A stretch of DNA of 64,000 nt, taken from NCBI GenBank assembly GCA_000004985.1, contig GG738863.1; one strand, 5' to 3'. The position numbers were made by a program, and so were the translations under genes. The notes beneath the pieces were generated by a model that worked only from the letters and a program-made list of their open reading frames with translations, ran no database searches and was not told the DNA's origin. Below are positions 3,171-63,600 of the stretch, piece after piece; position 1 is the stretch's first letter; every line of letters begins with the position of its first letter. The DNA comes from Naegleria gruberi. Its lineage: Eukaryota.

Positions 3171-5752
3171 TTATTTTGTTAAACTTAAAAACATGTGATG
3201 CTCTCCAAAACTAGCAGATTTGATCTTCAATCCCAAATTTGTGTTGTCAAGATTTGGGCATGAGACGTTCAAAATTTCTACTGGAATATCGACTGCGATT
3301 GGAATGTCATGATAAAAGTAAAATCCTTGTTGATAAGGCCAACTGACTAACTCTTGATAACTGTTATCGCCTGAAACAAAGACTCTACCATCAATTCCCA
3401 CAAACAAAGTGTGATCGAATTTGGCATACACACTTTCAATTTCTCTTCTACTTAATGGATGCATATCAAAGTCATTATGTTGTGGTTGGAAATTAATCTT
3501 GAGAGGAATACAACTTGATGGCAGTTCAGTCTTAGTTCCCAATTGGCCCTTACTATTACTTCCTACAGTGTAGACAAAGTTTTGACCATTGACAAACACT
3601 GAATGGTTAGCACCTGCAGCAATAGCAACTATTGGGGTTCTGTTGAACAAATTCAATGGCAATTCTGATGGCACACAAACCTTCTTGATTCTTTCAAAAC
3701 CACACTGACCATTTCTATTATCACCACAAGTAAATACTCTTCCTGATTCGGTCAAAATTATAGTATGATTTTCACCACATTTAATATCTTTGAGTTGCTC
3801 ACCCTTAAATGTGGCAACTTTAGTCATGGATGGAATGAACTCTCTATGGTCATCAATACCAAGTTGTTTGTGATTGTTTGAACCACAAGCATACAAATCA
3901 TTATTGGCTAAAACAACTGTATGATTCTTGCCTGCTGCTATATTGGAGACAAACACTTCTTCATCCCAAACAACTTCACAAAGAGTATTTACATCCATAT
4001 TGTGACCTTGACCTAATTGACCAAACTGATTTGAGCCATATACAAACAATTTTCCATCATTTCTCTTCATAATGTAATGACATGATTGCTCATTTCCATT
4101 GCAATCAATATCTTCAATATTATCCAAATCAAATTCAATCAATGATGAATCCTTTGGACCTCCTAGAATATATACACGACCTGTTTCACTCAAAAGCATG
4201 GTGCTAGAAGCAGCACAACACACTTTCTTAATATTTGGTATGTCTTCAAATACTGAATTTTCCTCGTCCAAAAACCCAAGAGTTGGGTGAAGAATGCAAT
4301 TTTGCATACCAGTTTGGTTGTTCATATTGGATCCTGAGACTACCAATGTACAATCATTTGGATCCTTTAAACCTTGGGCAAATGTTGTAAATGTGTTGTA
4401 CTTTGGAACTAAATCTCTGTACTCCTCAAAGTATGGATGTTGAAGTATTTGTTCAGTGGTCAATCTCTCTTCTTGATTAATGTTCAACATTCCTCTCAAC
4501 AAGTCAAGTTCCTCATCTGTACAGGATCCAAAAACAAAGTTTGCAGAGCCATCTTCAGTCATTCCCCATCCCTTTTCTGTTACCAATGTTGTGACATGGT
4601 TTTTGACATTAAATTGTTGGTCACACCAGTCATTTTCAGTTGGTTTTCCAAACAGTTTTACAATACATTCCCAGATTTCTGTTGATGTAGATCCCTTAAA
4701 TATTGGGATTCCTCTGAGAAGGAAGGCAAAAATGGTTCCCAGGGTCCAAACGTTGTTGACTCTTCTGTTATTATCGCCACCGGTGACATCTCTGAAAATT
4801 CGTTCATTCTTTGTCGCAAACAAATAATCTCTAGAGTAATTCTTGCTTGGGCTTGCAAAGGATGATCTTCTTGGAGTTCTTGGGGATTTTGGTGAGGAAA
4901 TGATTGAGCTTCTTGGCGATTCAAGTATAGAATTTCTTCTTGGTGTCATAGATCCACCAGGAAATTCAATGGATCTTCGTGGTGTTGCAGTATAACTGTA
5001 AATATCATTGTTTGAATCATCTTCAATGGACACACTGGTGAGATCAAATAAACCAACTTTACAACCATCACCAATAACAATTAAATGAGGATCGACGGCA
5101 AATCTATGAAGACACTGATGAACCATTCCAGCCTTATGGATTTCATTAATTGCGGAAACGATTTGGAAAAATACAAATTTTCTCTGCTCATTATTAAGCA
5201 AACCATCCAAAATGGCATCAACCAATGAAAGTTCTAAGGAAATCGTGTCAATACAACGAAACAGTAGAATAATTACTTACGCATGTCTCCGTTTGGATAC
5301 AAAAAATAGGTCAGACCATCATCAATTGGTATCACCTTTTCTGGATGAATTATATTATCATGACGGAATGATTGGAGAAGTTTAATATATTTCATACATT
5401 TTTCTCCATCATCAACTGGATCCTTTTCATAAGGAAAGGTAAATTGGTCGACTAGCTTGTGAGTTAATTTCAGAACGAGTACATCTTTTTCTAATCCCTT
5501 TTCCTTAGCTGTAAATAACTCAACTTGAGGTACCCGATGAATATTATCACCAATCACTGCTTGCTCACTTTCCAATATTCTTTGAAAATGCTCCAATCTT
5601 CCAGTGATAACCTTTCCTAATGTTGATAACATAAACTTGTAACTACCAGCAGAAATTGGACTTCCCTTATTGGCCAATGTGTTTTGTTGGTTCTGGAGGA
5701 GAATATCTGCATTGATGTAGTTTGCAATTTCCGTGAGAGTGGCTCTCTGCAT
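3171..5752 (-). CDS. Protein-kinase-like (probably pseudokinase) domain fused to C-terminal RCC1 repeats; two exons, minus 5752..5281 and 5233..3171, with a 47-bp intron
   Basis: Exon 1 encodes the kinase N-lobe (GSPISAGSYKF...K, HDNIIHPEKV). Its donor is C|GTAAGT and the acceptor is TTAG. Exon 2 continues ...ARKFVFFQIVSAINEIHKAGMVHQCLHRF, where HRDLK is replaced by HQCLH, then ...KVGLFDL with DFG replaced by FDL. More than five RCC1-type repeats follow (YACGSNNHKQLG, VFTCGDNRNGQCG, VYTVGSNSKGQLG). Confidence 0.6.
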
Positions 5753-24156: not shown

Positions 24157-27100
24157 ATGTATCAACATCTTCCTTCATACATTTTCCTTCTATTTTTCTT
24201 CTTGTTATTATTTGTTGTTTCTGACTCCGAATGCCTTCATCATCATCATCATCGGTATAACACAGAGGAACCAACAAACATCTACACAGCCATATATTAT
24301 GTTGATCAACAGCAGCAGGGAAGAGAGTATAGAAATTTAACGTGTCGAGATGAACAACATCCCTGTTCTACTTTGGATCAAGTCATACAGGCAGCTAGGA
24401 AGGAATTATCAATGATGAGTTCTAATGACAATATCAACCATATTGCTAATGGTGAACGTCCTTTGATTATTGACACATTCAAAATGGTGATTATGAGTCC
24501 TTTCAATTTATCAAGATTTTCATCAGAATTACCTTTCGAATTTACCGAATATTGTACAAGATTTGAATTATTTTGGATTGGAAAGTTTATTACAGAATTA
24601 ATATTACCAAGGGAAAGTGTAATTGACTTGTTCTATATGAATGGTGGAATATTTGATAATTTTTCTACCCTGCAATTCAACAAGGGAATTGATAATGTGA
24701 AAATAGAGAATTGTACTGGAGTGATAGATGTCAACACTAATATTAGACAGCTGGAGATTGAATTTTGTAAATTTAATGAAATAATCATTCAAAACAATAT
24801 TAGACACATACAAATCAGCAACTCGAGGCTCAATTTCTTTAATTTACATTCAGAAAATATTCAATCCATGGTCAAGATTGAAAATTCCTTTTTAACTGGC
24901 AGTGTGCATATGCAGCTGTTTGAGCTATTTTCAATCTTTAATAGTACTTGGACCAGCATGAATACAAAATCTGAATTCAAACTTGGAAGGACAGTTCTAT
25001 TATCAAATATCACTACAAACTCTTTGGCACTATTTATGTTGATTGATACATTACAATTGGACAATGTTTTGGTGAATGGCACAAGAAATGATTGTCAATT
25101 TTATCAAATGATTAGTATCAACTCTTTGATAATTCAAAATTGCACATTTACTAATAATTATTTTTCAGAAGCCAATAGATTTATGTCTTTACAGATTGTA
25201 ACTTCCCTAACCATACGAGATACATTATATTCCCAGAATAATGGCGGATTTTTGCTCTTTACTGAGCCACAAAGTGTGGTGTTTACTAAAATTTCCCTTA
25301 CCAATAATATTATTCAAAACAATACCATTAAGAGTGATGCTTTATTGAAATTCATTGACCAAAATCATAGTTACTACAATATTGAAATTGAAAATTGTTA
25401 TTTTATGAATAACATTGGCAATAATTTGGGATCTTGTCTATATGTAGATGGTGGAATAGTTGATATTAGAAACTCGGTATTTTCTTTCAATATAGCACTT
25501 TTTGGTGGTTCCATATATGCTACCATGTCGAGTGTAGTAGTGAATAATTGCTCATATATTCAAAACCGTGCTGATATTGGTGGTGCAGTGTATTGTTTAG
25601 GTTCACACCTTGAAATTGAGAATGTGTATTGTGGAGAGAATCTGGCATTCTATGCAGGAGGCTGCATCTATTCAGATAGCACTGTGGTATCAAACAGATT
25701 GGAAGGAAGAAATAACATAGGTGCTTCTTATGGTAATCTTATTGCCTATCCATTACAAACCTTAGCACTTAGTATGAATGATATAATTATTGAAGATAGT
25801 ATTCAAGCCTATCCTGGACAATTACTCTATTTAAATCTTTATATAATGGATAAGAATAATCAGAGTGCTCTATTTCTATCAGATTCTAATTATTTAACAA
25901 TCCAACCAAAACATCCATCAGATGGCTTGTTATCTCAAAGCACTATTTCTGGAAATGCTCACTTGATAGTAGGATTACAATTAAAACTCAACAAACCATA
26001 TATTAGAAACATACCAATCACTATTACAGTTAATGCAAATATTATTAGAGAAATTCAAATTGAAATCCTTCCCTGTCCTTACAGTTATATTTTGAAAGAG
26101 AGCACTGGTTTTGGATGCGAATATCTTGCTATTGAAATTATAATTCCTTCAGTTGTTTTGGGATTCATTTCACTTTTGATTATTATTGGATCAATTTCTT
26201 ATGGATCTTTGATTTTAATTAAAAAATTATTGAAATTACAAAAACAAGAAAAAGCAGAGAAGGAGATTGAGAAAAAGTTCAATGATAAGCAATTCATTTT
26301 CGAAACAAATGAAGAATCACCACTCCTCTTCAATGATGATAACTATTCCAATTCTATTAACAACAATAGAGAAATGTCTAAAACAAAGAATATTTCTCAA
26401 CAATATATTATTCCAATAGCTGAGATTGAAATTGTAAAACGAATTGGGGAAGGCACATTTGGAAGTGTTTATCATGCGCTATGGCATAAGACTGATGTGG
26501 CAATCAAAAGACTTAAACATGAAACTAGTGATGATGAAGAATTCGAAAGAGAAGCTATTTTAATGTCTTCTTTAAGACATCCATTTATAGTAAGCTGTTT
26601 TGGAGTTTCACTAACAACCAATGCAAAATATATGGTCGTTGAGTATATGAACAATGGAAGTGTTGAGAAGGCAATTTATAATTCCAATCAGGGAAAAAAT
26701 GTTTTGAGGTTTAATGTGAAATTGAAGATTCTCATTAGTGTGGCTAAAGGATTGACCTATCTACATTCAATCAAACCACACAAAATAATTCATAGGTAAG
26801 TACTACTTGAAAAAGGTTAATGGTTTAAAGAAATCTTTCATAGAGACCTAAAATCTGCCAATATTCTGTTAGATTCAAATATGAATGCTAAAGTATGTGA
26901 TTTTGGATTGAGTAAGGTAGTTTCCAATTCGCATACAATGACTTCTAATGTGGGCACATTATTTTACACCAGTAAGTTCTTTATGTTATTCTTGTATTGT
27001 GATCAAATCTACCGAATCATGTTGAATATCAATTTTTGCTTCCCTTAATGTTTGTCACAAATAGGTCCAGGTAAGTATTTCAGTTGGTTTATTATTGTTG

Positions 27101-27612
27101 TATATTTTTCTGTTTTGTTAACATGTCATCCTATAATGCTCTGTTACATTGTGTTAACTCTTTAGTAAGTTTCACAATTATTTTCACTTTACTTTAATAT
27201 TGAAAATAAGGAGTTGTTATCTAACCAAGGCTATAAAGGCCAATCCACCAAATTGGATGTTTATTCCTTTAGTATTGTAATGTGGGAACTTTTATTTGAA
27301 AAGTCTCCATTTTCTGATGAATTGGAACAAGTTGAAAATCCATTCTCAATGCTAATGAATATTATTAATGGACACAGACCTAAATTAATGTTTGGAACTT
27401 CATTCGAAAATGTAACAAATGATTGGATTGAACATAATTTCACCAAGAAACAAATTCAAAATGTTGGTAGTAGGGAAAAGATTATTCAATATTTAGCAAA
27501 GTATGTGAAAATAATGGAAATGTGCTGGGCTCAAGATGCCTCACAAAGACCAGAATTTATTGAAATTGTTGATTATTTGGAGAATTTAAATTCTTCCTTA
27601 TTCAACCATTGA
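24157..27612 (+). CDS. Receptor-like transmembrane protein kinase: signal peptide, parallel beta-helix (Pmp-like) ectodomain, one TM helix and a TKL-type kinase; at least four exons
   Basis: N-terminal signal peptide MYQHLPSYIFLLFFFLLLFVVSDS. Repeated ectodomain motifs GGSIYAT / GGAVYC / GGCIYSD. TM helix IIIPSVVLGFISLLIIIGSISYGSLILI. Kinase motifs GEGTFGSVY, AIKRL, HRDLKSANILL (split by the 26796..26843 intron after CATAG|GTAAGT), DFGLS, then a 6-bp microexon (27065..27070) and a last exon from ~27211 (ELLSNQGYKG...DVYSFSIVMWELL). The phase across the microexon does not close with canonical sites. Confidence 0.7.
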
Positions 27613-27628: not shown

Positions 27629-28651
27629 TTACACTACATCAACTTGATTAGTTATAAAAAGTCTATCCTTCTTCCTTTGTCTACGGTGTAAACCAGTGAA
27701 GAGGAGAAGCTTGCTGACAAGTAGATCTTTTGAACTATAGATTAGAATATTTTCATTCAAATTCTCTTCTGCCAATCCTATCTCTACAATACAATAGAGA
27801 AATAATCCTCCAATGAGAGATTTTATCATCAGTATGGCACTAAACATACATAAAAAGATCCCAACACCACCTATTGCAGATGTTAAGCCAATTGGTTCTA
27901 ATGTCCACTCAACTTGTGTTGTGAGGATTCCATTTCTATCATAATAGCAGATAAAGTGTCTGTGTTCGTATTCTAATGGGTTACATGGGCCATCCTCACC
28001 TCCACATTTGTATTGAGTTGGTCGAATGAATTTGTAGCCATCAGAGTGCATGGTTATTTCAGTCCTTACTTCAATAGTCAATTTGAATGAATCTGTTGGG
28101 ATTTTATCGTAGGTACATTTAGATATTTCGATACAACATGGATAGAATGAATTTTTAAAATCACACATGGCCAAACCCTTTTCACATGGAATGCAAGTTG
28201 TGTTTGGAAATGGAATGGTATTATAGATTATTTCTGTAGAGTTGGAAATGGAATATTGATGACAATCAGCTGCTTTCCATACATCTTCAATTAGATACCA
28301 TAGTATTGCCATACCAAAAGCAGCAATATTTAACAGAAAACCAAAAAGTAAGAGAGCAAATCCATTGTAGAATGTTTTAACCCTACAAATATCACCAACA
28401 TGTTCATTCATCCTCTTGTGTTTGACAATTTGTGTACGTTTAGATTTTGGATTGGAATGTTGGAGATTTAATTTGTTATCGAATTCTGTCCAATATCTAT
28501 CGGAAGAAGCAAGGGAGAAGAATCTCTTATTGACCAGAGTGAGAGTATTAAGCACTTTCACATCTAAAACATTTATAAATTGGAAAACTAAATCCAGCTC
28601 GTCATCATTAAGGGAGGATGGTGTGCGAGATTGTTCTTTATATTGAGACAT
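27629..28651 (-). CDS. Hypothetical protein with an F-box-like N-terminus, a Cys-rich region and hydrophobic TM helices
   Basis: 340-aa ORF. N-terminal LNDDELDLVFQFINVLDVKVLNTLTLVNKRFFSLASSDRYW resembles an F-box. At least two long hydrophobic segments (GFALLLFGFLLNIAAFGMAILWYLI; AIGGVGIFLCMFSAILMIKSLIGGLFLYCIV). Confidence 0.35.
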   Translation of the reverse strand: MSQYKEQSRTPSSLNDDELDLVFQFINVLDVKVLNTLTLVNKRFFSLASSDRYWTEFDNKLNLQHSNPKSKRTQIVKHKRMNEHVGDICRVKTFYNGFALLLFGFLLNIAAFGMAILWYLIEDVWKAADCHQYSISNSTEIIYNTIPFPNTTCIPCEKGLAMCDFKNSFYPCCIEISKCTYDKIPTDSFKLTIEVRTEITMHSDGYKFIRPTQYKCGGEDGPCNPLEYEHRHFICYYDRNGILTTQVEWTLEPIGLTSAIGGVGIFLCMFSAILMIKSLIGGLFLYCIVEIGLAEENLNENILIYSSKDLLVSKLLLFTGLHRRQRKKDRLFITNQVDVV

Positions 28652-32524: not shown

Positions 32525-34482
32525 ATGAGTTCATTCCACTGGAAATTGTTGAAGGAAAAGTTTCTCTCACCAACAGAAACCATTAAAAAGACTGTATTTA
32601 CTATTATTATGGTAAATGATGTGTATGAAATGCTTCCGTAGGTTTATTGATAATGAAATATTTGTATTGATTGTATTTTCTTCATCAACCATTCTTGTCA
32701 TGTTTAAATTCATTTGTGGATTTCAAAATGTTTAATGTTTAATTAATTAATACGATATATTATATTTAAATCAAAATATTTAAAATTGATGATGATCAAA
32801 ATATTGTCCGATTTTAGAGATAACGATGGGTTGGGAGGATTGGCTGAATTACAAACCATCATCGAACAGGAAAAGTTCAAGAGTAGACATTGTATTGCCA
32901 CATTGAATGGTGATTTTATGAGTGCTTCAACATTGGCCACTAAGTATAAGGGATATCACATGATTGATATTTTGAATCATATTGATTTGTAAGTAGAGAG
33001 TGATGATTGCTTTCGGAATAATGTAATGTGGAAATTTTTGTTGATAATTTGTGAAATAGAGATTATGTCACTTTGGGAAATCACGAATTTGATTTTGGAA
33101 CTCCAAATGTTTTGGAAAAGGTCAAGGAATCTAGATTCAAGTGGATTTGTTCAAATGTAGTTTGTCCTGATGATCATAGTAAGGTTTTACCTGGTTTGAT
33201 TCCAAAGGTTATACATGAATGTGATGGTTTTAGAATTGGTGTTTTCGGTGTTTGTACAAAGAATACTGAATACTTGTCAAGACCAGGTAAGTTATTGACC
33301 TAACCTATATTGATTCATATTATTCTTAGGTACTGAGGCTGTATTTTTGCCAAGTGTTACTGTTGCAAATAAGATGGTTAAGGAATTGAGAGAGGAAGAT
33401 AAGTGTGATGTTGTCATTGCTTTGACCCATCTTACTATTGGAGATGATAGAGAATTGGCAAGAAATTGTCCAGGAATTGATTGTAAGTTATTAATATGAT
33501 TATTGATTCATATATATTTCAGGTATTTTAGGAGGTCACGACCACACACCACATTCACAAGTACAAGGTAGTTGTTTCATTCATAAGGCAGGTCACGATG
33601 CTCAATATGTAACCAGAATTGATTTGTCCATTGAAAAGAAACAAACTCCACTCAATGGAGAAAATCTTGTCCAACTCAAAGTTTTCCCAGGCTGTAACAT
33701 GATTGTAAACAGAGGTTATAAACCAAATCAAAAGGTTTCTGAAATAATTGAAAAGTACATGAAACAATTACCAGAGGGAATTATGGAAGAAATCGGATTG
33801 ACTGTTACTAAATTGGATTCTTCAACAGAAAGTGTCAGATCAAAGGAAACTACTTATGCAAACTTTATTGCTGATATTTTCTTGGATTCATTTGGAGCTG
33901 ATTTGGCCATTATCAAGTGAGTTTTTATTCTAAATTTATTTTACTTACCATTAATACTATCACTTAATATCTCTTTACAATAGCGGTGGAGGTATTAGAG
34001 GAGATAGATTCTATGATATTTCAAAGAGAATTACTCGCTTGGATGTATTGAAGGAATTCCCATTCCCTAATAACATTTCATTGGCAGAAATTAAGGGAAG
34101 TGACTTGATGGAAGTTACAGAACAAGGTGTAGCCAAGGCTGAGTGTGTCATTGGATCTTTCCCACACTTTTCAAGAGGAGTTTGTGTACAATATGACACT
34201 ACCAAGCCACCAATGAAGAGAGTTGCCAAAATGACTCTCAATGGTGTCGATATTGATCCTAACAAGGTGTACAATATTGCAACAGTAACCTATATTCTCA
34301 ATGGAGGTGATGGATTCAGTGCATTCACAAAGGCAACACCAAAGGAACATCCTTTGAATGGAAAATCAGTTTATGATCTCGTTATTGATTGGATTGAAAC
34401 TCATAGAAAGGTTGGAGCCAAGAAGGAAGGCAGAATTTATGATGTTTCAAAGAAGAATTCTACAGCTGTTTTCAATTTTTAA
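32525..34482 (+). CDS. 5'-nucleotidase / metallophosphoesterase family protein; six exons (32525..32637, 32818..32988, 33060..33286, 33330..33482, 33533..33916, 33984..34482)
   Basis: Motifs in order: NDVY (motif I, His replaced by Tyr), GNHEFD, GGHDH, NGGGIRGD, and the 5'-NT C-terminal domain. Every junction has a GT donor (GTAGGT, GTAAGT, GTAAGT, GTAAGT, GTGAGT) and an AG acceptor, and keeps the reading phase. Introns are 180, 71, 43, 50 and 67 bp. Confidence 0.75.
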
Positions 34483-34967: not shown

Positions 34968-36353
34968 ATGCATGCAGTTAATGATCAACAACAATCAATT
35001 AATTTAAATTCGTCATCTTGTGCTTCTTCTAATGAGAAAGAACAGCAACAACCATTAATTCATCTCTTGGAACCATTGAATATTGTCTTGGTCGGAGATG
35101 AAGGTGTTGGAAAGTCCTCATGTTTAATAACCTATTCTGAATTATTAAATAAGAAGAATGATATTACAAAGCAGCAACAGCAACAACAATTGGAATATAA
35201 ATATGATAGAGGATGTATTCCATCAGTAGTTGAGACATTGAGAAGAGAAGTGACCATTCCCAAGACATCACTTGGACATTGTAAATTTGTGAATAGTTCT
35301 GCACTGGATCAATCATTTGATTCAACTCAAAGTTTACAAAATTGTGAAGGTTTTACAATGAATGTAAATCTTATTGATACACCTGGTGAAGAGGATCAAT
35401 CAATGGATAGAGTTCAACATTATTATCCTCATGCCAATGTATTTGTATTAATATTTTCGATTAATGACATTACATCATTTGAGAAATTGGCTGATTATTG
35501 GTGTAAGGAAATTAAGAATGTATCTCCACATCCATGTATGATGATTGTGGGTAATAAGAGTGATGTTGGTTCAGAGGAAAGACACGTGACTCGTCTCGAT
35601 GGTTTGGAAATGCAAAATAAGATTGGAGCTAAAATGTATATGGAAATTTCATCCACGAGTGGAAATAATATTGTAAACATGTTTGATGCTTGTGTGAAAA
35701 TGGGCACTAAAGAACTTGATGGTCGATGCGCTCACTTACTTTACAAACAAAACGATCATTCAATTCATTTGGAACGTCGACATCATCTTCATCCTGAAAC
35801 TCTAACTTTGAATATTCCTCCAAGAGAAACTTTGGCAGCCATTAAGGAAACTCCCTCAATTCCACCATCAACTACGAGTAGCATCAATAGTAGTAGTAGC
35901 AGCAGTTCAGCTTCTCAAAAGGTTGAGACGATTAAGGAACTGAGCTCAACAACCCAATCACTCTGTGCAAAAATTACAAAACAACTTTCATTTGGGACAC
36001 CTCCTATAGTAGAGAAGGAATTTAGATTTGGAGTTGAGCTTTTACCAAAGATATTCCTAGATAATGATCCAGAAGCAGAAGTGTTGAAAAAACTAAATTT
36101 CAAAATTAAGAAAATTGTAAAGGTAAAAATTGATCTCAACATGAATCCGCTCTGTCAAATCAAGAGACAAATAATTGGTGCATTTGGAAAGGAAAATCCA
36201 AAGGTTTGGGGAAGAAAAACTGAAGAGCAATGGTTGAAAACTCTCAAAGTTCAAATATTGGATAACATTTTTAATGATTATTATGATTTGGACGATTGGG
36301 AACAGGTTATTTCTCAAAAGGAGGACAATATCAAATTACTTGTATTTTACTAA
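34968..36353 (+). CDS. Atypical Ras/Rho-superfamily small GTPase domain with a long insertion and a ~250-aa C-terminal extension
   Basis: G1 is VLVGDEGVGKSS, G3 is LIDTPGEED, G4 is MIVGNKSD and G5 is ISSTSG. There is a ~90-aa insert between G1 and G3, and a Ser-rich tail follows. Confidence 0.5.
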   Translation: MHAVNDQQQSINLNSSSCASSNEKEQQQPLIHLLEPLNIVLVGDEGVGKSSCLITYSELLNKKNDITKQQQQQQLEYKYDRGCIPSVVETLRREVTIPKTSLGHCKFVNSSALDQSFDSTQSLQNCEGFTMNVNLIDTPGEEDQSMDRVQHYYPHANVFVLIFSINDITSFEKLADYWCKEIKNVSPHPCMMIVGNKSDVGSEERHVTRLDGLEMQNKIGAKMYMEISSTSGNNIVNMFDACVKMGTKELDGRCAHLLYKQNDHSIHLERRHHLHPETLTLNIPPRETLAAIKETPSIPPSTTSSINSSSSSSSASQKVETIKELSSTTQSLCAKITKQLSFGTPPIVEKEFRFGVELLPKIFLDNDPEAEVLKKLNFKIKKIVKVKIDLNMNPLCQIKRQIIGAFGKENPKVWGRKTEEQWLKTLKVQILDNIFNDYYDLDDWEQVISQKEDNIKLLVFY

Positions 36354-37488: not shown

Positions 37489-38978
37489 TTACAATTCTTC
37501 ACCTTCATCCAACATGGAATCTTCTTCAGCAACTCCTGAATCCTTTTCCAATTCTTCATAGTCCTTTTCCAAGGCAGCCAAATCTTCACGAGCTTCAGCA
37601 AATTCACCTTCTTCCATACCTTCACCAACAAAGTGATGAACATAGGCACGTTTAGCATATAACAAATCAAACTTGTCATTCATCTTGGAGAAGACTGAAG
37701 CAATGGCAGTAGAATTGGAAATCATTGAGCATGAATTGTCAACTTGAGCCATTTCAGAACCTGGCAACATGGTTGGAGCTTGATTATTGATACCAATCTT
37801 GAAAGCACATGGAGACCAATCAACAAATTGAATACTGGACTTGCTCTTCATAATCTTGACAGCATCACTGACATCCTTATTGACAACATCCTTACCACGA
37901 TACATTAAACAACATGAAATGTACTTGCCACTTCTTGGATCACATTTGGCCATCATGTTATTTGGTTCAAAGACCTTACTAGTCAATTCAGCAGCATTAT
38001 TAGTAGCATAGTATTGTTCAGCAACTGAAACCATTGGAGCCAATGAAGATAACATAAAGTGAATTCTTGGATATGGAACTAAATTAGTTTGGAATTCGTT
38101 CAAATCAACATTCAATGAACCTGGGAATCTCAATGAACAAGTCAATGATGAAACAGTTTGAGCAATGACACGATTCAAATTTCTGTAATCTGGTCTAGCA
38201 ATCTTCAAGTTTTGTTTACAGACATCATAGATAGCTTCATTGTCCAAAACAACTGAAATATCATTATGTTCCAATAAGGAATGAGTAGATAAGACTGAAT
38301 TGTATGGTTCAACAACTGAAGTAGTCAATTGAGGAGATGGATAAATATTGAAACCCAATTTGGTCTTTTTAGGGAATTCAACAGCTAATCTTTCCAAAAG
38401 CAAAGAAGCAAATCCAGAACCAGTACCACCACCAACAGAATTGAAAATTTGGAAACCTTGCAATGATTGACAATTATCAGTAATTCTTCTAATAGTATTC
38501 ATGGCACTATCCAAAATATCCTTTCCAATAGTGTAATGACCACGAGCAAAGTTATTGGAAGCATCTTCACTACCACGAATCATATAATTTGGATGATACA
38601 ATTGTTTGTATTCAGTATTCTTAATGGCATCAATGACAGATGGTTCCAAATCCAAGAACATGGCACGTGGAACATATTTACCAGAAGAAGCTTCGGAGAA
38701 ATAAACAGAAGCATCGTTACCTTGAACAGAATCAGTGGTACCATCAGGTTTGATTCCATGTTCAGCACAGAATAATTCCCAACAGCTGTTACCAACTTTG
38801 TTGAAGAAGATTTTCAAAAATTTAGATTAGAAAAATTTGATGATAAAAAGTGGAGATTGGAAAATGAATCATGTGAATAGATTAAAAATGTTAATATATT
38901 AGAGAATTGTGAAATTAGGTGTTGATAGTTACCTTGAATACCGGCTTGACCAATGTGGAGGGAGACGACTTCTCTCAT
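37489..38978 (-). CDS. Alpha-tubulin; two exons, minus 38978..38933 and 38795..37489, with a 137-bp intron in codon 16
   Basis: Exon 1 revcomp reads ATG AGA GAA GTC GTC TCC CTC CAC ATT GGT CAA GCC GGT ATT CAA G|GTAACT ([15 protein letters not shown]). Exon 2 ([15 protein letters not shown]...GGGTGSG...) continues in phase after ...CAACAAAG. The gene is alpha-tubulin-like throughout but moderately divergent at the N- and C-termini. Confidence 0.9.
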
Positions 38979-39492: not shown

Positions 39493-40451
39493 ATGGGTCT
39501 CTCAGCATCTACCTCTCTTGTCTCTTCACATAATAAGTTTTNNNNNNNNNNNNNNNNNNNNNNNNNNNNNNNNNNNNNNNNNNNNNNNNNNNNNNNNNNN
39601 NNNNNNNNNNNNNNNNNNNNNNNNNNNNNNNNNNNNNNNNNNNNNNNNNNNNNNNNNNNNNNNNNNNNNNNNNNNNNNNNNNNNNNNNNNNNNNNNNNNN
39701 NNNNNNNNNNNNNNNNNNNNNNNNNNNNNNNNNNNNNNNNNNNNNNNNNNNNNNNNNNNNNNNNNNNNNNNNNNNNNNNNNNNNNNNNNNNNNNNNNNNN
39801 NNNNNNNNNNNNNNNNNNNNNNNNNNNNNNNNNNNNNNNNNNNNCGATCAACAAGACACCTATGACAGCAATTTCTTTGGTGTTGATGGTGAAACCAATT
39901 GTAGATTGATGAATAAGAATAATTCAAAGGAACAATATGGTGCTGAAGGTGAATATCATTGGGTAACCATGCCATTCTCTGATGTCAAGTACAAGATGAC
40001 CATCGTCGCTGTCAAGAATCAAGCTCATCAACAAACACTTGATGGATGGGTTGCTCAAAAATTGAATCAAGGAATAGACACTGCCTTCCCAACAGTAGAA
40101 ACTAAACTCGGCTCATTTGCCTTCCCTAAATTCGAACTCTCTCAAGGAATGGAATTGAGCGACATTTTACAAAATGCTCCATTCAACATTAAGAAACCAT
40201 TTACAAATGAGGCCGATTTCTCTCACCTCCTCCAAAAGGAAAGTATCTTTATTGATAAAGTCATTCATAAGGCATCTATTAAGGTTGATGAAGCAGGTGC
40301 TGAGGCTAGTGCAGCAACTGCTATTGTGATGAGATGTTTGAGTTATGATCCAAATGAAATTAGATTTGTGGTCAATTCACCATTTGCATTTGTGTTGACT
40401 GATGATTCTAGTAAGACTGTTCTTTTTGTTGGTAAAGTCAACAAGTTGTAA
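39493..40451 (+). CDS. Serpin (serine protease inhibitor), interrupted by assembly gap 39542..39844
   Basis: The post-gap ORF has the serpin C-terminal half. Hinge/reactive-centre loop: IKVDEAGAEASAATAIVMRCLS. Signature FVVNSPFAFVLTD...TVLFVGKVNKL. The ATG at 39493 (MGLSASTSLV) is probably the start, before the gap. Confidence 0.7.
39542..39844. other. Assembly gap (303 N)
   Basis: Run of N inside the serpin gene. Confidence 1.
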
Positions 40452-45451: not shown

Positions 45452-46809
45452 TTGAATTATCATCTAAAAAAAATGCTCTCCTTCTTCTCTAGGGCTCGAT
45501 CTCTCTCATCCTCAACAGAAAATAATGAAGAATCAACAACGTCTAATACAAAATCAAGTAAAATAATCATTGAGGAGATTGATTCTGAAACTGAAATAAC
45601 AACCACACCAACAACCCCACAACCTACAACAGAAACAGAAACAAGAGAAGATCCATCCCAAACTTCTCCCTCAAGCGCCGAAAAAAGGTACCACACTCCA
45701 AGAATAACTGTAGATGTTATCAGGGACTTGTGCTCTCGCCAAAGTTTGTTCCAAACACCCTATTTGAATGATAAACTCTTCCTTCATCACCGAGGCTTCA
45801 GAGTCATTGAAAATTTAGAATTATACACTGAACTGAAAGCTTTATGGCTTGAGGGTAATGCCATCACTAAAATTGAAAACCTTGGCCACTTGGATAAGCT
45901 CAGATGTTTGTATCTCAACCAGAATCTCATCACTACAATTGAAAATTTGGAAAATTTAGTGAATTTGCAAACATTGAACCTCTCCAGTAACAGAATTACT
46001 GTTGTAGAAAATTTGGAATGTTGCCCTCAATTGGAGACTTTNNNNNNNNNNNNNNNNNNNNNNNNNNNNNNNNNNNNNNNNNNNNNNNNNNNNNNNNNNN
46101 NNNNNNNNNNNNNNNNNNNNNNNNNNNNNNNNNNNNNNNNNNNNNNNNNNNNNNNNNNNNNNNNNNNNNNNNNNNNNNNNNNNNNNNNNNNNNNNNNNNN
46201 NNNNNNNNNNNNNNNNNNNNNNNNNNNNNNNNNNNNNNNNNNNNNNNNNNNNNNNNNNNNNNNNNNNNNNNNNNNNNNNNNNNNNNNNNNNNNNNNNNNN
46301 NNNNNNNNNNNNNNNNNNNNNNNNNNNNNNNNNNNNNNNNNNNNNNNNNNNNNNNNNNNNNNNNNNNNNNNNNNNNNNNNNNNNNNNNNNNNNNNNNNNN
46401 NNNNNNNNNNNNNNNNNNNNNNNNNNNNNNNNNNNNNNNNNNNNNNNNNNNNNNNNNNNNNNNNNNNNNNNNNNNNNNNNNNNNNNNNNNNNNNNNNNNN
46501 NNNNNNNNNNNNNNNNNNNNNNNNNNNNNNNNNNNNNNNNNNNNNNNNNNNNNNNNNNNNNNNNNNNNNNNNNNNNNNNNNNNNNNNNNNNNNNNNNNNN
46601 NNNNNNNNNNNNNNNNNNNNNNNNNGGCAACTCTCACATTCGAACATGCTGGTGAAGAAAAATCAATGATTGTCGATGTAAACCTATACAATTCCGAAGT
46701 TTGCAGAAAGGAATATGCCAGACTGTATCAAAATAATCAAGACAAACCATCAAAAACCCAACTCTACTCTCCTCACATCGTTTCACTGTGGCTTAGAGAA
46801 TTGAAATAA
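45452..46809 (+). CDS. LRR protein resembling dynein axonemal assembly factor 1 (DNAAF1/LRRC50/ODA7), interrupted by assembly gap 46042..46625
   Basis: LCSRQSLFQTPYLNDKLFLHHRGFRVIENLELYTELKALWLEGNAITKIENL...CLYLNQNLITTIENLENLVNLQTLNLSSNRITVVENLECCPQLE follows the DNAAF1 N-terminal LRR block almost position by position. The post-gap segment (46626..46809) may be the C-terminus of the same gene. Confidence 0.55.
46042..46625. other. Assembly gap (584 N)
   Basis: Run of N inside the DNAAF1-like gene. Confidence 1.
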
Positions 46810-49617: not shown

Positions 49618-50544
49618 TTATTTTCTTCTTTTGCTCTTCTTCGCCAATTGAGTGGAACTTCCACTCAATTTGTAAAGCAAGAAGGAATCGTGTTTATCTT
49701 TGAAACAATATCTATGCATTGGACCACATACGCTACAACCAGTAGAGGCACTATTCCTCACCTTCTCAAGTTTATGACAAACAACACAATGAGCAACTCT
49801 ACCAGAATAGCCCAGTTCACGAACCGTAATTAATTTGTGTGCTGAGGCAAGTTTGATTGGTGACAACTGTAAACAAAGTTGATCCACAAAATCATTCTTT
49901 GTAATGGATGATTTTTTAGCCAATTTGAAGGCGACGAATGCATTATGAATCATCATACTAAAATACCAATACAATAAACCAATTCTCCAACGATACTTTC
50001 GGTAAGGGAATTTAGTTTGGAGGCGGAATTATTAACTTGGTCAATATGACCTGCTTCACTGAAATATCTATTAACAAGAGTGGGAACAACTTTACCTTGA
50101 AGAGTGAAATCCGTTGTTTCCAAATTATCCATTTTCTCTTGACGAATGACAAGGTTTCCATTTTCGAAATCTATTGGAATAGTTGTCAAAAAATTCAAAA
50201 TCTTACCCTCATTATTCTTAATACAAAATACACCAAATNNNNNNNNNNNNNNNNNNNNNNNNNNNNNNNNNNNNNNNNNNNNNNNNNNNNNNNNNNNNNN
50301 NNNNNNNNNNNNNNNNNNNNNNNNNNNNNNNNNNNNNNNNNNNNNNNNNNNNNNNNNNNNNNNNNNNNNNNNNNNNNNNNNNNNNNNNNNNNNNNNNNNN
50401 NNNNNNNNNNNNNNNNNNNNNNNNNNNNNNNNNNNNNNTTTCGACAATCAGGAAATTGAACTTCCCAAAGAATGTAAAAAGAGAATAGTCACTTGGGAAA
50501 ATCAAGCTAGACAAATCATACGTGAAGCCAAAAAATATGAGCAA
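49618..50544 (-). mobile_element. piggyBac-like transposase remnant (C-terminal DDE region plus Cys-rich domain), spanning assembly gap 50239..50438
   Basis: ORF 49618..49974 (minus) ends with a piggyBac-type CRD: HCVVCHK...TGCSVCGPMHRYCFKDKHD, i.e. C-x2-C...C-x2-C...C-F-x-x-H. The adjacent upstream ORF has ...RYFSEAGHIDQVN, comparable to the transposase NKYMGGVDxxDQ region. The element is truncated at only ~300 aa, and TIR/TTAA ends were not identified. Confidence 0.45.
50239..50438. other. Assembly gap (200 N)
   Basis: Run of N inside the piggyBac-like remnant. Confidence 1.
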
Positions 50545-53972: not shown

Positions 53973-56900
53973 ATGCGAAGAATTCCAAGAACACCTTCTT
54001 CATCATCGAATAATAATCAACACAATTTACCAGTGATTGTTATTGATGATTCCACTGATGAGGATACAAGTATTTTACTTCCAGAAACTCCACCAAGAAG
54101 AGTTGTCGAACAACAGCAACGACAACGGGAAAATCTACCTATTGCTGTCTCTGATGATGAAACAACTCTGAATCCCTTCTCTCCAGGAGGTTCACCTTTA
54201 TATGCACCTTCTTCACCACAACTTCCTCTCAATTCTTTGGATTGGTCAGATTCAGAAGACTCCTCCGAATATGAATCATCATCTGATGAAGATGAAACAC
54301 CAAACCACAATAATATTGATGACTTTCTTGATAGATTAACAAGAGAAGAAGAAAGAGAAAGAGTCACCACTCACCAAACTCACCCACCAGTTGTACAATA
54401 CCCTTCAGTAGTGAATAGTAATAATAATTATAATAATTATAATTATTTACAATCACGACTGATCAATAATACTAACAGTAATAATAATATCAACTTGACT
54501 CTTCCCTTCGTGAATAACAATAATAATAGTAGTAATAATAGTAGTAACAGTAGTAGTAGTAATAATAATTCTAACAGAAATCTATTGCATCAACATAGAT
54601 TGCAGTCAACATCAGCAATAGCAGCAAGAATTCCAATTCAAGCATCCCGTAGATTTATAACTCCAACTACTTCTTCTACAAACAGAAATACACCTTTCGC
54701 ATCAGCATCTAATCATGCAAATCATCACCATCATCAACATCTTTTCACTAATAGAAATAATATCATAGGAATTCAAAGAAACAATGACCACCATGATACA
54801 CCATTTGAAAGAATGGTTGAAGAACATATTTTAGCCCAAGTTATTGCACGAACCCAACGTCACCAAGTGGGAGGAGCTATCCANNNNNNNNNNNNNNNNN
54901 NNNNNNNNNNNNNNNNNNNNNNNNNNNNNNNNNNNNNNNNNNNNNNNNNNNNNNNNNNNNNNNNNNNNNNNNNNNNNNNNNNNNNNNNNNNNNNNNNNNN
55001 NNNNNNNNNNNNNNNNNNNNNNNNNNNNNNNNNNNNNNNNNNNNNNNNNNNNNNNNNNNNNNNNNNNNNNNNNNNNNNNNNNNNNNNNNNNNNNNNNNNN
55101 NNNNNNNNNNNNNNNNNNNNNNNNNNNNNNNNNNNNNNNNNNNNNNNNNNNNNNNNNNNNNNNNNNNNNNNNNNNNNNNNNNNNNNNNNNNNNNNNNNNN
55201 NNNNNNNNNNNNNNNNNNNNNNNNNNNNNNNNNNNNNNNNNNNNNNNNNNNNNNNNNNNNNNNNNNNNNNNNNNNNNNNNNNNNNNNNNNNNNNNNNNNN
55301 NNNNNNNNNNNNNNNNNNNNNNNNNNNNNNNNNNNNNNNNNNNNNNNNNNNNNNNNNNNNNNNNNNNNNNNNNNNNNNNNNNNNNNNNNNNNNNNNNNNN
55401 NNNNNNNNNNNNNNNNNNNNNNNNNNNNNNNNNNNNNNNNNNNNNNNNNNNNNNNNNNNNNNNNNNNNNNNNNNNNNNNNNNNNNNNNNNNNNNNNNNNN
55501 NNNNNNNNNNNNNNNNNNNNNNNNNNNNNNNNNNNNNNNNNNNNNNNNNNNNNNNNNNNNNNNNNNNNNNNNNNNNNNNNNNNNNNNNNNNNNNNNNNNN
55601 NNNNNNNNNNNNNNNNNNNNNNNNNNNNNNNNNNNNNNNNNNNNNNNNNNNNNNNNNNNNNNNNNNNNNNNNNNNNNNNNNNNNNNNNNNNNNNNNNNNN
55701 NNNNNNNNNNNNNNNNNNNNNNNNNNNNNNNNNNNNNNNNNNNNNNNNNNNNNNNNNNNNNNNNNNNNNNNNNNNNNNNNNNNNNNNNNNNNNNNNNNNN
55801 NNNNNNNNNNNNNNNNNNNNNNNNNNNNNNNNNNNNNNNNNNNNNNNNNNNNNNNNNNNNNNNNNNNNNNNNNNNNNNNNNNNNNNNNNNNNNNNNNNNN
55901 NNNNNNNNNNNNNNNNNNNNNNNNNNNNNNNNNNNNNNNNNNNNNNNNNNNNNNNNNNNNNNNNNNNNNNNNNNNNNNNNNNNNNNNNNNNNNNNNNNNN
56001 NNNNNNNNNNNNNNNNNNNNNNNNNNNNNNNNNNNNNNNNNNNNNNNNNNNNNNNNNNNNNNNNNNNNNNNNNNNNNNNNNNNNNNNNNNNNNNNNNNNN
56101 NNNNNNNNNNNNNNNNNNNNNNNNNNNNNNNNNNNNNNNNNNNNNNNNNNNNNNNNNNNNNNNNNNNNNNNNNNNNNNNNNNNNNNNNNNNNNNNNNNNN
56201 NNNNNNNNNNNNNNNNNNNNNNNNNNNNNNNNNNNNNNNNNNNNNNNNNNNNNNNNNNNNNNNNNNNNNNNNNNNNNNNNNNNNNNNNNNNNNNNNNNNN
56301 NNNNNNNNNNNNNNNNNNNNNNNNNNNNNNNNNNNNNNNNNNNNNNNNNNNNNNNNNNNNNNNNNNNNNNNNNNNNNNNNNNNNNNNNNNNNNNNNNNNN
56401 NNNNNNNNNNNNNNNNNNNNNNNNNNNNNNNNNNNNNNNNNNNNNNNNNNNNNNNNNNNNNNNNNNNNNNNNNNNNNNNNNNNNNNNNNNNNNNNNNNNN
56501 NNNNNNNNNNNNNNNNNNNNNNNNNNNNNNNNNNNNNNNNNNNNNNNNNNNNNNNNNNNNNNNNNNNNNNNNNNNNNNNNNNNNNNNNNNNNNNNNNNNN
56601 NNNNNNNNNNNNNNNNNNNNNNNNNNNNNNNNNNNNNNNNNNNNNNNNNNNNNNNNNNNNNNNNNNNNNNNNNNNNNNNNNNNNNNNNNNNNNNNNNNNN
56701 NNNNNNNNNNNNNNNNNNNNNNNNNNNNNNNNNNNNNNNNNNNNNNNNNNNNNNNNNNNNNNNNNNNNNNNNNNNNNNNNNNNNNNNNNNNNNNNNNNNN
56801 NNNNNNNNNNNNNNNNNNNNNNNNNNNNNNNNNNNNNNNNNNNNNNNNNNNNNNNNNNNNNNNNNNNNNNNNNNNNNNNNNNNNNNNNNNNNNNNNNNNN

Positions 56901-60689: not shown

Positions 60690-63600
60690 TTAAACAATAC
60701 GAGAAAGGGCTAATTGTCTCTCTCTGGTTAACTCAAGAGTATTAACTTGTTCTTCGTCACTTGGTGCTTGTTCACTTGAGCTAGCATCATTGTTGGATTC
60801 AGTAGTTGAAGCAGTATTGTTGGATTCAGAAGTGGCAGCCGATGAATTTTTGGATTTGGTAATGATATAATTCTTTGGAGTGGATTCGACAAACTTTTGT
60901 ACAACACTAAGGATAAGATGCATGACGGCTTCTTTTTGAGAATCAATTCTCTCAGATGAAGCAATTAATAGTCTGAGAATATCATACTTGATCATCAAAA
61001 TTGCCAAATGATTAGGGTTAGAAACTGAAAGAGCCAATTGAAGGAGGAATGAACCGATGAAGGTTATTATCTTATGTGAACTTTCTATTTGCAAAATATT
61101 TGAAATTTCATTGAATACCAAATGTGGTTTCTTTGAGCAAATTTCAATAAGCAGAGAAGTACCACCAACAGTACTTTGTGGATCCATGAAAGAAGTAAGA
61201 AGGAAGTGAATAAACTTATTATCTCCCTTCATATTGGAATCCAAATTATCATTGGTATATTCAATGAGGCTTTCATACAAATCACAAGCACTAACAAAGG
61301 TGCCTAAAACTTCCAAATAGATTCTAGATTCTTTTGGTTTTTCAATAATGTATGAAACAAGTTTGTACAGTAAAGTCTTGGCAGTCTCACCATTTGAAGA
61401 GGATGACTGTGTTGCAGCTTCTTCAGTAGGAGCATCCTTTGTCTCAATAAATCTGTTTCTATTGATTTGGAACATTTCCTTGACAAGCCCAAAGAAAATG
61501 GATGGATTTCTCTCAATCAGAGAGGCATTTTCAGCAAGGAACAAGCGAACTGTAAGACGACTACCTGCAGTCTTTGGATGTCTTCTCTTCAAAATGTTTC
61601 TCATGATGGATTTTGTGTTATCCTTATCACAGACAATATTCAAGAGAATTTGTTCAATAGTTTGAGCATTAGATGCCTTCAATACCAATTCAAAGTGTGG
61701 AGAATTAAAGAGTTTGGTGCAGCNNNNNNNNNNNNNNNNNNNNNNNNNNNNNNNNNNNNNNNNNNNNNNNNNNNNNNNNNNNNNNNNNNNNNNNNNNNNN
61801 NNNNNNNNNNNNNNNNNNNNNNNNNNNNNNNNNNNNNNNNNNNNNNNNNNNNCTTGAACATTCTTTGGTTCATTTGTAAGTCTTTCAATTGCAGCATTCA
61901 CTACGAAATCCTTCAATGTATCCTTCTTCTTAGCAAATATACTGAGCACATCAATACAGGCATAGGCTAAACCCTTGGTAAAAAGTCTAGCGGTGAGCCA
62001 TTTATCACTCTCTTCTTCAAGAACGACTGAATAATCTGTCTTGTCCTCTTCATCGTTCATCATTCCAGATTCTACCATAGACATTCTAATAGCTTTACTT
62101 AATTCGTCTTCATCTTCTTCCTCCTCCTCTTCTTCAACCTCTTTTGGAATGGTATTGTTGAGAATCCACTCTGCAGCTACCATTACATCATTATTGGCAC
62201 CTCTGAGAGCGGCACGAGCATCTTTTTGAGTAAATCCCATTTCCATCAATTGGTTGACCTTATCTTCGTCCTCTTTAACAGGTGAAGTTTCCTTCTTGCT
62301 TGTATCACATCCCTTGATAATATGACCAACAACATTGATGAGACAAATCAAGAATGTAGTACTGCCCTTCTCAATATTCTCATGATTCCATACCTTGGCA
62401 ACAGCTCCAGCAACCTTCTTTTGGACTTTAGTGGTGAGCTCAGAAACTTTGAAACCATCAAGAGCAAACAATTTGGCAGTTATTGGTGATTGAGCAGCGT
62501 AGTTGGCTGATGTAATCTTTTGGAGGAATGCTGTAAAATCTTCCAAACATGCAGAAGCAATACCATATTCACTTGATTCATATTCAAAAAGATAGATAGG
62601 ATCGGCTGATTCTGGTTTGCTTGGTTTTTTGACATCTTGTGACAAGATTAAATTTACAAGATCAACATAAAGCTTCATGATAGAATCAATAACACCCTTA
62701 CTAAGCATATTGTCAAGTACAAGAGTATTCAAATTTCTATAAGTTTCACTGATAACAACACTATAAATTAATGTCATTAAAGAATGTACATGAGCAGCCT
62801 TGACTGTCCAGGAAAGGTTTTCATCATTGAGAACCTTTTGAGCTTCTGTAACAGAGACTGAGAAATTTTGAACTAAAAGGCCAGCAATCTCTTTGGCTTT
62901 CAAAATAGATTCTGCTTGACCATCATGTTCAATAAGCTCGAAAATAGCTCTTTGAAGAGATTGATAAAATCTGAAAATTAGGGTCAAATATGAGCTAATG
63001 GTATTGTTGTTAAACTTTCTCAATGATCTGGCACCAATCTCTTCTTGAGTTTCCTCAACAGGTTTAGTTTCAGCAGAAGAGGAGGCAGCTGAGGAGCTAG
63101 AAGTAATGGATGTTGTAGATGTGTCCAGAGTCTTTTCTTCAGAGACAATAGGTTTCTTTCTCTTAAGGGCTGCAATTTCATCCTTCAAAATTTGAGGCTT
63201 GGATTTGGCAATATAGAGTCTAACTTTTGATTCCAAACGTGCTAAATCAGTTAAAACATCACCTTTCTTATTTTTCCATACTTCCACAAATGAATCTTCT
63301 GATTGTTCAAAGCAATTACTCATAATTTCAATAATAGTTGTAAGAGCGAAAATAGTCTTAATAGTACTGAATTTCTCAAATTCCAATTCTCCTGCATTCA
63401 ATGCACCCAGCTTGGAGTTTAAAATCTCGGACATCCCTTCATACACCAAAGTACTATGGCTTCTAATTAAATCCTTGAATACCACAATATATCTCATTGG
63501 TTCGATGGCGTTTTGAGTAGATGGCACAAGAGACAAATCTGTAATCTTCAACAACACTGGGAAAAATCCCTTATCAACGAAGAGAGTAGCATTATCATGT

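Follow-up and report, generated by a model that had tools for sequence, protein, structure and literature searches.

How is a receptor kinase gene to be read when its reading phase does not close with simple canonical introns? The question is raised by a locus at positions 24157-27612 of a 64,000-nucleotide stretch (the window) of contig GG738863.1 from Naegleria gruberi (assembly GCA_000004985.1). An earlier note on this DNA had described a receptor-like kinase (RLK) with a 6-bp microexon and a phase that is off by one at the last acceptor. The ATG, intron 1, the end of exon 2, the microexon GTCCAG, the start of the last exon and the TGA were all found where that note had placed them, and a simple GT..AG intron at 27071-27210 does cause a frameshift, to ...FYTSPGVVI and a stop. 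The flanking exons are intact with all kinase motifs, and a poor open reading frame (ORF) that arose by chance does not account for the phase problem. We consider it likely that a spliceosomal twin intron (stwintron) of the [D1,2]/[A2,3] kind, next to a microexon of 5-6 nt, explains the defect. An intact gene for a type I receptor kinase of 1057 amino acids appears the best explanation of the locus.

The sequence CTCTTTAGTAAGTTT is found at 27160-27174, inside the supposed 140-nt intron. G27165 belongs there both to an acceptor AG (27164-65) and to a donor of consensus sequence, GTAAGT (27165-70), so that the interval can be read as two complete short introns, of 95 nt and 46 nt. The anatomy is G27070/GTAAGTATT...TTAACTCTTTAG27165/TAAGTTTCAC...CTTTAAT...ATAAG/G27211, where slashes mark splice junctions. 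Read as two overlapping canonical introns, the 'last intron' lets the phase close with GT/AG sites alone. The 95-nt intron runs GTAAGTATT...TTAACTCTTTAG and, as fits an internal intron, combines a GTAAGT donor with a branch-point-like TTAAC placed 8 nt before the T-rich acceptor ...CTCTTTAG. Its loss brings G27070 to T27166-AAGTTT, and the donor that results, CCA/GTAAGTTT, hardly differs from the exon 2 donor CCA/GTAAGTTC. The external intron in this [D1,2] reading is G27070 plus 27166-27210, a phase-0 intron of 46 nt between the Pro and Glu codons in which CTTTAAT precedes ATAAG by about 14 nt; local introns are 40-53 nt long. In the [A2,3] reading, loss of 27165-27210 joins ...CTCTTTA to G27211 and forms the acceptor TTTAG/AGTTG.

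Either order of excision gives an mRNA with TAC ACC AGT CCA GAG TTG TTA, encoding Y-T-S-P-E-L-L (GTLFYTSPELLSN). At this junction the frame closes only by the combined removal, which takes out 141 nt (47 codons' worth) and leaves ...GTLFYTSPELLSNQGY...; the two-step coding sequence of 3174 nt runs through 1057 codons to its only stop, at the end. One-step excision, pairing donor 27071 with acceptor 27210, would give the premature stop after ...SPGVVI, and this naive donor lies 1 nt downstream of the conserved Pro/Glu position, at phase 1. The earlier note had proposed that the microexon supplies the Ser-Pro of the SPE motif of the activation segment, and this stands: together with the A of exon 2 it encodes exactly these residues, and microexons of 5 and 6 nt occupy the same place in a paralog. 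GTCCAG at 27065-27070 is flanked by AAATAG/ and /GTAAGT, exon 2 finishes with TTA TTT TAC ACC A (LFYT and one nucleotide), and the last exon, which alignment places collinear with the paralog XP_002669923, opens with GAG TTG TTA at 27211 behind AATAAG/.

We infer two consecutive spliceosomal reactions, and their order, as follows. In the [D1,2] path the 95-nt intron would leave first, joining ...GTCCAG to TAAGTTTCAC... with the new donor CCA/GTAAGTTT; this intermediate, without 27071-27165, would read ...GTCCAGTAAGTTTCAC... (...GTCCAGTAAGTTTCACAATT...). The 46-nt external intron would then be excised in phase 0 between Pro and Glu, GTCCA being joined to GAGTTG. In the [A2,3] path the 46-nt intron would be first, giving the acceptor ...CTCTTTA-G in an intermediate without 27165-27210 that would read ...CTCTTTAGAGTTG... 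(...GTTAACTCTTTAGAGTTGTTA...), and an external intron of 95 nt would follow. Both paths would lead to the same mature junction, CCAGAGTTG, in the context ...TTTTACACCAGTCCAGAGTTGTTATC.... Pairing of splice sites would be by intron definition, over 95 and 46 nt; after the TTAAC branch region the proximal AG (27164-65) would be chosen in preference to the distal one, and a second spliceosome would assemble on the regenerated donor or acceptor.

How often would such elements arise by chance? GTAAGT occurs 22 times in the window (both strands, 128 kb), and four of the 22 lie between 26796 and 27165. The heptamer AGTAAGT is present five times in approximately 114 kb outside the gene, a frequency at which the 131 inner nucleotides of the intron would hold 0.006 copies on average, and it appears in 0.7% of dinucleotide-preserving shuffles of the intron. 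The strict pattern GGTAAGT(N25-300)AGTAAGT has two matches in the window (both strands), both of them in the kinase gene; apart from the 95-nt intron there is only a match that stretches across exon 2. The window's other introns measure 40, 43, 47, 48, 49, 51 and 53 nt, with GTAAGT as the first six letters of almost every one. A search for internal repeats or symmetry in the introns, and for likeness among the kinase-gene introns or to the homologous Pro/Glu introns, gave nothing beyond the donor hexamer.

All models of one or two non-overlapping G[TC]..AG introns were enumerated; 673 are open and in frame, and Y-x-[A/S]-P-E is encoded by none of them. Simple shifts of the last acceptor or donor (27209, 27212 and 27214; microexons of 8 or 10 nt) were each non-canonical or out of frame and were rejected. 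Six candidate products were scored with the Pfam models PF00069 (Pkinase) and PF07714 (PK_Tyr_Ser-Thr). The twin-intron product, with SPELL, is the best of the six at 181.7/180.9 bits. A product with SPEELL, made with a non-canonical TA acceptor, reaches 177.7/177.9 bits and a KELL model, also with a non-canonical acceptor, 167.5/174.2 bits; three canonical in-frame alternatives (14- or 16-residue insertion, 9-residue deletion) give 150.7-160.3/162.7-164.3 bits. The SPELL product also fits the family. It aligns with the paralog NAEGRDRAFT_75112 (XP_002669923, P0196) over 969 residues with 38% identity, and the junction is gapless (GTLLYIAPELLSN; GTLFYTSPELLSNQGYKGQSTKLDVYSF in the SPELL product, GTLLYIAPELLSNHHRGPTTKIDVYSF in the paralog).

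The DNA of five relatives, L008 to L012, was taken from metagenome assemblies. The closest relative with DNA, L008 (58% amino acid identity in the kinase domain), reads ...TTT TAT ATT GCA CCA/GTAAGTAGC...TTTTTCACAG/GAA ATT... and thus has one canonical 46-nt intron (CCA/GTAAGT...CACAG/GAA) in phase 0 between Pro and Glu, with no other intron nearby. The product of L009 is at least 90% identical to NAEGRDRAFT_75112. Here (3230-3374) the order is CTA TTA T/45 nt/ATATT/40 nt/GCACCT/49 nt/GAG TTA CTT, that is, consecutive microexons of 5 nt (ATATT) and 6 nt (GCACCT) and then a 49-nt phase-0 Pro/Glu intron, and the splice product equals the public protein. AAG acceptors are in use within the family, ending three of the four visible introns of L009. 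The more distant L010, which has an EGF-type ectodomain, carries a 43-nt phase-0 intron at the same boundary (PN/E), L011 a 42-nt phase-0 intron one codon pair upstream (M/APE) and L012 no intron at the activation-segment codons. The motif Y-x-A-P-E-L/I is shared by P0196, L008, L011 and L012.

Phase-0 introns of 43-49 nt before the Glu codon in L008, L009 and L010 make this a recurrent family feature, and such an intron is probably ancestral in the family. Its position and size are conserved in the gene studied here, where only the external intron of the twin structure provides a 46-nt phase-0 Pro/Glu intron. In the simplest history, a 95-nt intron would have entered the ancestral Pro/Glu intron at its donor, separating G1 from T2. 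NAEGRDRAFT_75112 and its near-copy L009 share the receptor-kinase architecture, the split activation-segment codons, microexons of 5 and 6 nt and the phase-0 Pro/Glu intron. They differ in that their introns are all simple and non-overlapping and the public model of NAEGRDRAFT_75112 is complete; in the gene studied here the intron before the microexon is shifted by 1 nt, to phase 1, and the Pro/Glu intron is split by a second intron.

That shifted intron 2 (ACC A/GT CCA, phase 1) lies 1 nt downstream of a phase-0 intron of the relatives (L011 1850-1891, L009 3280-3319), which sits between M/I and the A of the APE motif. Discordance of intron positions by 1 nt has been proposed to result from stwintron intermediates (PMC5587772), and that of intron 2 may be a trace of this process. 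Elsewhere in the kinase domain, an N-lobe intron that follows KYM(I/V)V is present in several paralogs (L009 2900-2947, L012 2878-2919, C-terminus of P0047), its GTAAGT being read through as V-S. It is missing from our gene, whilst the IIH/RDLK intron of our gene is missing from L008 and L009; these differences indicate a fast turnover of intron positions within the family. In L010 and in P0049, P0053, P0106, P0109 and P0113, from Naegleria lovaniensis and environmental relatives, the APE sequence is replaced by ANE, PNE or GNE. The DNA of L010 (1766-1825) is ATG CCA AAT/intron/GAA, so that PNE is no annotation artefact. Active kinases seldom carry such a substitution in the P+1 loop. A metagenome scan with P0061 gave no match, and loci L001-L007, retrieved by a metagenome scan with an N-lobe alignment, were discarded as generic intron-less kinases of approximately 30% identity.

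Is there a better explanation than a stwintron? Several points weigh against that reading. The twin intron is known here from genomic sequence alone, and from a draft scaffold with five N gaps in 64 kb. The branch-point-like TTAAC is separated from the proximal AG by a short distance, about 8 nt. A full-text literature search found stwintrons reported only in fungi, every paper retrieved treating fungi or mentioning the fungal work in passing, and the present host is a heterolobosean. The conserved Pro/Glu position is equally well explained by one extra G at 27070/27071, which would hide a single 140-nt phase-0 intron, and the only points on the other side are the internal AGTAAGT, the typical 46-nt external length and how improbable, a priori, an error at just this base would be.

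An assembly or sequencing error of this kind, with one base too many in the GG pair 27070-27071 or 27210-27211, is the strongest rival. It posits a single canonical 140-nt intron, a microexon of 5 or 6 nt and a coincidental AGTAAGT, and it predicts the same mature mRNA as the stwintron; an extra G at 27070/71 would place the intron at the conserved phase-0 position, and the five N runs show that the scaffold is a draft. It nevertheless needs one particular base to be wrong together with the chance occurrence of AGTAAGT behind a T-rich tract and TTAAC (p approximately 0.006-0.007). The closest gap is 12 kb away, and the intron would be three times longer than its 43-49-nt homologues, compared with 46 nt for the external intron of the stwintron. 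We judge such an error to be unlikely, though it is the explanation most deserving of attention after our own. It is also what survives of the three causes offered in the earlier note (a non-canonical acceptor, a sequencing indel or an alternative exon), none of which is the best supported.

A purely canonical exon structure with an atypical activation segment appears quite improbable. Three such structures are in frame with GT..AG sites and draw on AAG acceptors as used in the family: an intron 26972-27169 of 198 nt giving LFYT-ISQLFSLYFNIENK-ELL, the microexon with acceptor 27169 giving SP-VSQLFSLYFNIENK-ELL, and an intron 26950-27210 that deletes VGTLFYTSP. Their products fall 17-31 bits below the SPELL product in Pfam, and no such insertion or deletion is present in the relatives P0196, L008, L011 and L012. 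The 41 nt turned into coding sequence would be T-rich and intron-like, and the proximal TAG (27163-65) comes before the AAG at 27167-69.

A real one-base insertion, making the gene a recent pseudogene or null allele with no productive mRNA, is less probable again. Naegleria has many paralogs in this large receptor-kinase family and public annotation did not close the model, leaving a partial protein of 158 residues (P0048). A recent pseudogene is unlikely because the rest of the gene is intact: the 1057 codons are otherwise open, all kinase motifs are preserved, and the sole 'lesion' would have to fall exactly on a splice junction that also has a compensating AGTAAGT. Least credible of all is a non-canonical 3' splice site, either ...AATAAGG (GG acceptor), which yields the same best-scoring SPELL protein, or ...AAAATA (TA acceptor), whose SPEELL product is only about 3-4 bits lower in Pfam, since AG ends every recognisable intron in the window and in the five related loci, and a canonical solution exists that makes such a site unneeded.

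Returning to the stwintron, we lean towards the conclusion that N. gruberi makes a functional receptor-kinase mRNA by two consecutive splicings of a [D1,2]/[A2,3] stwintron beside a 5-nt microexon. The structure is known as a kind. The alternatively spliced [D1,2]/[A2,3] stwintron was defined, and shown by cDNA and splicing intermediates, in a DHA1-antiporter gene of Trichoderma reesei and the alternative oxidase of Helminthosporium solani (Fekete et al. 2017, PMC5587772). The same work sets stwintrons apart from recursive splicing, nested introns and intrasplicing, where no splice-site element is interrupted (PMC5587772). The fungal cases and ours have in common two canonical U2 introns that overlap by one G, an exonic G before the 5' intron and another after the 3' intron, one mRNA from either order of excision with a frame broken by one-step excision, and relatives in which a single canonical intron occupies the external intron's position. 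The lengths are comparable, 66+88 nt in T. reesei and 95+46 nt here. The differences are that the present host is a heterolobosean amoeboflagellate, that its twin intron adjoins a 5-6 nt microexon, and that the fungal structures are established by cDNA and intermediates whilst ours is read from the genome. There is no sign in this gene of the terminal symmetry and repeated 'sister' copies of stwintrons in the Hypoxylaceae.

Recursive splicing at ratchet points, or zero-length exons, in Drosophila and vertebrates likewise removes an intron stepwise, with a 5' splice site regenerated after the first ligation. In a ratchet point, AG/GTAAGT, the sites abut and neither is interrupted, whereas in the N. 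gruberi gene AG and GT share a nucleotide, so that a splice site of one intron, donor or acceptor, is genuinely broken up by the other and the exon boundary is displaced by 1 nt. The scale also differs, tens of kilobases for ratchet introns against 46-95 nt for the constituent introns here. Nothing pertinent came from literature searches that paired Naegleria with microexons or splice sites, and as far as the searchable literature shows the structure, known from fungi, is unreported in the heterolobosean branch.

What does the gene encode? The reading frame opened by ATG 24157 comprises 879 codons, and intron 1 is bounded by CATAG/GTAAGT...TTTCATAG, with GTAAGT as donor and CATAG as acceptor. 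The protein reading in the earlier note, of a signal peptide, beta-helix ectodomain, single transmembrane (TM) segment and TKL kinase, agrees with hydropathy, repeats, the family profile, Pfam and relatives in the PDB. A complete set of kinase motifs, GEGTFG, VAIK, HRDLKSAN, DFG, SPE and RPEF, is found at residues 764, 781, 879, 899, 923 and 1037, respectively. The nearest solved kinase domains are those of CTR1, TAK1, RIPK2 and ZAK (TKL), together with Pto, SYMRK and BRI1, and the domain is predicted to be TKL-like, closest to CTR1, TAK1, RIPK2 and plant RLKs. By hydropathy only, there are hydrophobic windows at residues 3-27, which is signal-like, and 656-688, the TM segment, which is followed by KKLLKLQKQEK. 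With 12 N-x-S/T sequons in the ectodomain, the predicted topology is that of a type I membrane receptor.

The ectodomain contains three GGxIY-type motifs (GGSIY/GGAVY/GGCIY) and three FxxN motifs. An HMM scan of this region, proposed as a check in the earlier note, was partly informative: the ectodomain alone has no Pfam match at E <= 0.1, only noise, whilst five of 12 family members match PF02415 (best E 3e-9) and three of 12 match PF13229. The family profile finds PF02415/PF13229 proteins with E values down to 5.5e-82, and the ectodomain aligns repeatedly with Chlam_PMP/Beta_helix proteins. The Pmp/beta-helix assignment is made because of the paralogs (PF02415 in five of 12) and the family profile, and not from this protein by itself. 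GGxIY and FxxN motifs are shared with the Pmp-type repeats (PF02415/PF13229) of Chlamydia; unlike Pmp-type proteins, our ectodomain is on its own below every Pfam threshold. Entamoeba transmembrane kinases and the plant RLK/Pelle family are receptor-like kinases with repeat ectodomains, and the protist and plant proteins have in common with ours a signal peptide, a repeat ectodomain, one TM segment and a TKL-like Ser/Thr kinase with HRDLKxxN. A homology search with the full protein and the family alignment retrieved only plant RLKs and bacterial or archaeal PMP-type proteins and no Naegleria proteins. The features of the gene are listed in Table 1.

Table 1. Features of the receptor-kinase gene, in window positions unless marked aa; domain assignments and intron boundaries are predictions.
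Feature	Position	Strand	Description
Whole gene	24157-27612	+	type I receptor kinase, conceptual product of 1057 aa
Exon 1	24157..26795	+	2639 nt; from ATG 24157 up to ...KIIH(R)
Signal peptide, in exon 1	aa 1 to ~22	+	hydropathy
PMP-like beta-helix repeats, in exon 1	~aa 320-510, nt 25114-25686	+	PMP-type alignments
TM helix, in exon 1	~aa 660-687, nt 26134-26217	+	hydropathy
Juxtamembrane region and kinase N-lobe	rest of exon 1 after TM helix	+	Pfam kinase match for N-lobe
Intron 1	26796-26843	+	48 nt, phase 2, between IIH and RDLK
Exon 2	26844-26971	+	128 nt; RDLKSANILL...DFGLSK...NVGTLFYT and first nt (A) of Ser codon
Intron 2	26972-27064	+	93 nt, phase 1, GTAAGTTC...CAAATAG
Microexon GTCCA(G)	27065-27070	+	5 nt (27065-27069) by the [D1,2] path, 6 nt by the [A2,3] path
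5' constituent intron	27071-27165	+	95 nt, GTAAGTATTT...GTGTTAACTCTTTAG; exonic G27070 just before
3' constituent intron	27165-27210	+	46 nt, GTAAGTTTCAC...CTTTAATATTGAAAATAAG; exonic G27211 just after
Last exon	27211-27612	+	ELLSNQGYKG...DVYSF...CWAQDASQRPEF...SLFNH and TGA 27610-27612

The earlier note had also drawn attention to 13 sense codons between the TGA and a following TAG. We count 12, and attach no significance to them: TGA is a standard if rare stop here, the kinase domain ends about 10 residues before it, and only 17 nt downstream lies the end of a convergent ORF. In the 22 long ORFs of the window TAA is used 17 times, TAG four times and TGA once, so that the kinase gene has the rarest of the three. 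A variant genetic code or TGA readthrough was rejected, as no exon contains an in-frame stop, TAA, TAG and TGA all serve as ORF ends in the window, and the kinase domain stops just before the TGA. The convergent ORF (27629-28651, minus strand) has 340 codons, and its end is so near that the 3' untranslated regions of both genes must overlap.

In public annotation the gene is represented by XP_002678082.1/EFC45338.1 (P0048), a 'predicted protein, partial' of 158 residues that an exhaustive HMMER search with the exon 1 translation as query found to be 100% identical to residues 761-918. It is on the same scaffold as XP_002678084.1, a small GTPase to which the ORF at 34968-36350 is identical. The model is spliced exactly at intron 1, ends 13 nt before the end of exon 2, and is without the ectodomain, the TM segment and the C-lobe. 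The model of NAEGRDRAFT_75112 reads cleanly ...NVGTLLYIAPELLSNHHRGPTTKIDVYSF. Other models are odd at the activation-segment site, NAEGRDRAFT_68759 with a KK insertion (LLYI-KK-APELL) and NAEGRDRAFT_65139 ending ...GTLFYMR, whilst NAEGRDRAFT_73913 ends ...SLIHR, at the position of intron 1. Unrecognised twin introns and microexons may lie behind truncated or oddly spliced models in the kinase family of Naegleria.

The window is gene-dense with 31-37% G+C. N runs at 39542-39844, 46042-46625, 50239-50438, 54884-56948 and 61724-61852 mark it as part of a draft scaffold and account for apparent dips of G+C along the composition profile; two or more of the runs lie within long ORFs (53973-59261 and 60690-63986). 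Introns at 33287-33329 (43 nt) and 33483-33522 (40 nt) of one gene are approximately 75% alike (GTAAGTTATT...TATTGATTCATAT...), which suggests duplication of an intron within that gene; by eye it resembles a metallophosphoesterase or 5'-nucleotidase. Also by eye, an ORF at 37489-38817 on the minus strand is tubulin-like, with a GGGTGSG motif and a first exon absent from the ORF list, and 3171-5752 on the minus strand seemingly encodes a kinase-like domain with RCC1-like repeats and has a 47-nt intron at 5234-5280.

If cDNA confirms the structure, the public model would be corrected from a 158-residue fragment to a receptor kinase of 1057 residues. Microexons of 5-6 nt and overlapping splice sites would then represent a class of gene structure beyond standard gene finders, and other Naegleria genes would probably be affected. 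Judged by the searchable literature, the spliceosomal twin intron would be the first of its kind outside the fungi, and a deep-branching excavate lineage would be shown to use sequential splicing by intron definition. The gene would provide a natural example, with informative relatives, of the insertion of an intron into an older donor and of a 1-nt intron shift. Stwintrons, and the 1-nt intron shift that they imply, would, if this is true, be no peculiarity of fungi but a general property of eukaryotes whose introns are short and recognised by intron definition.

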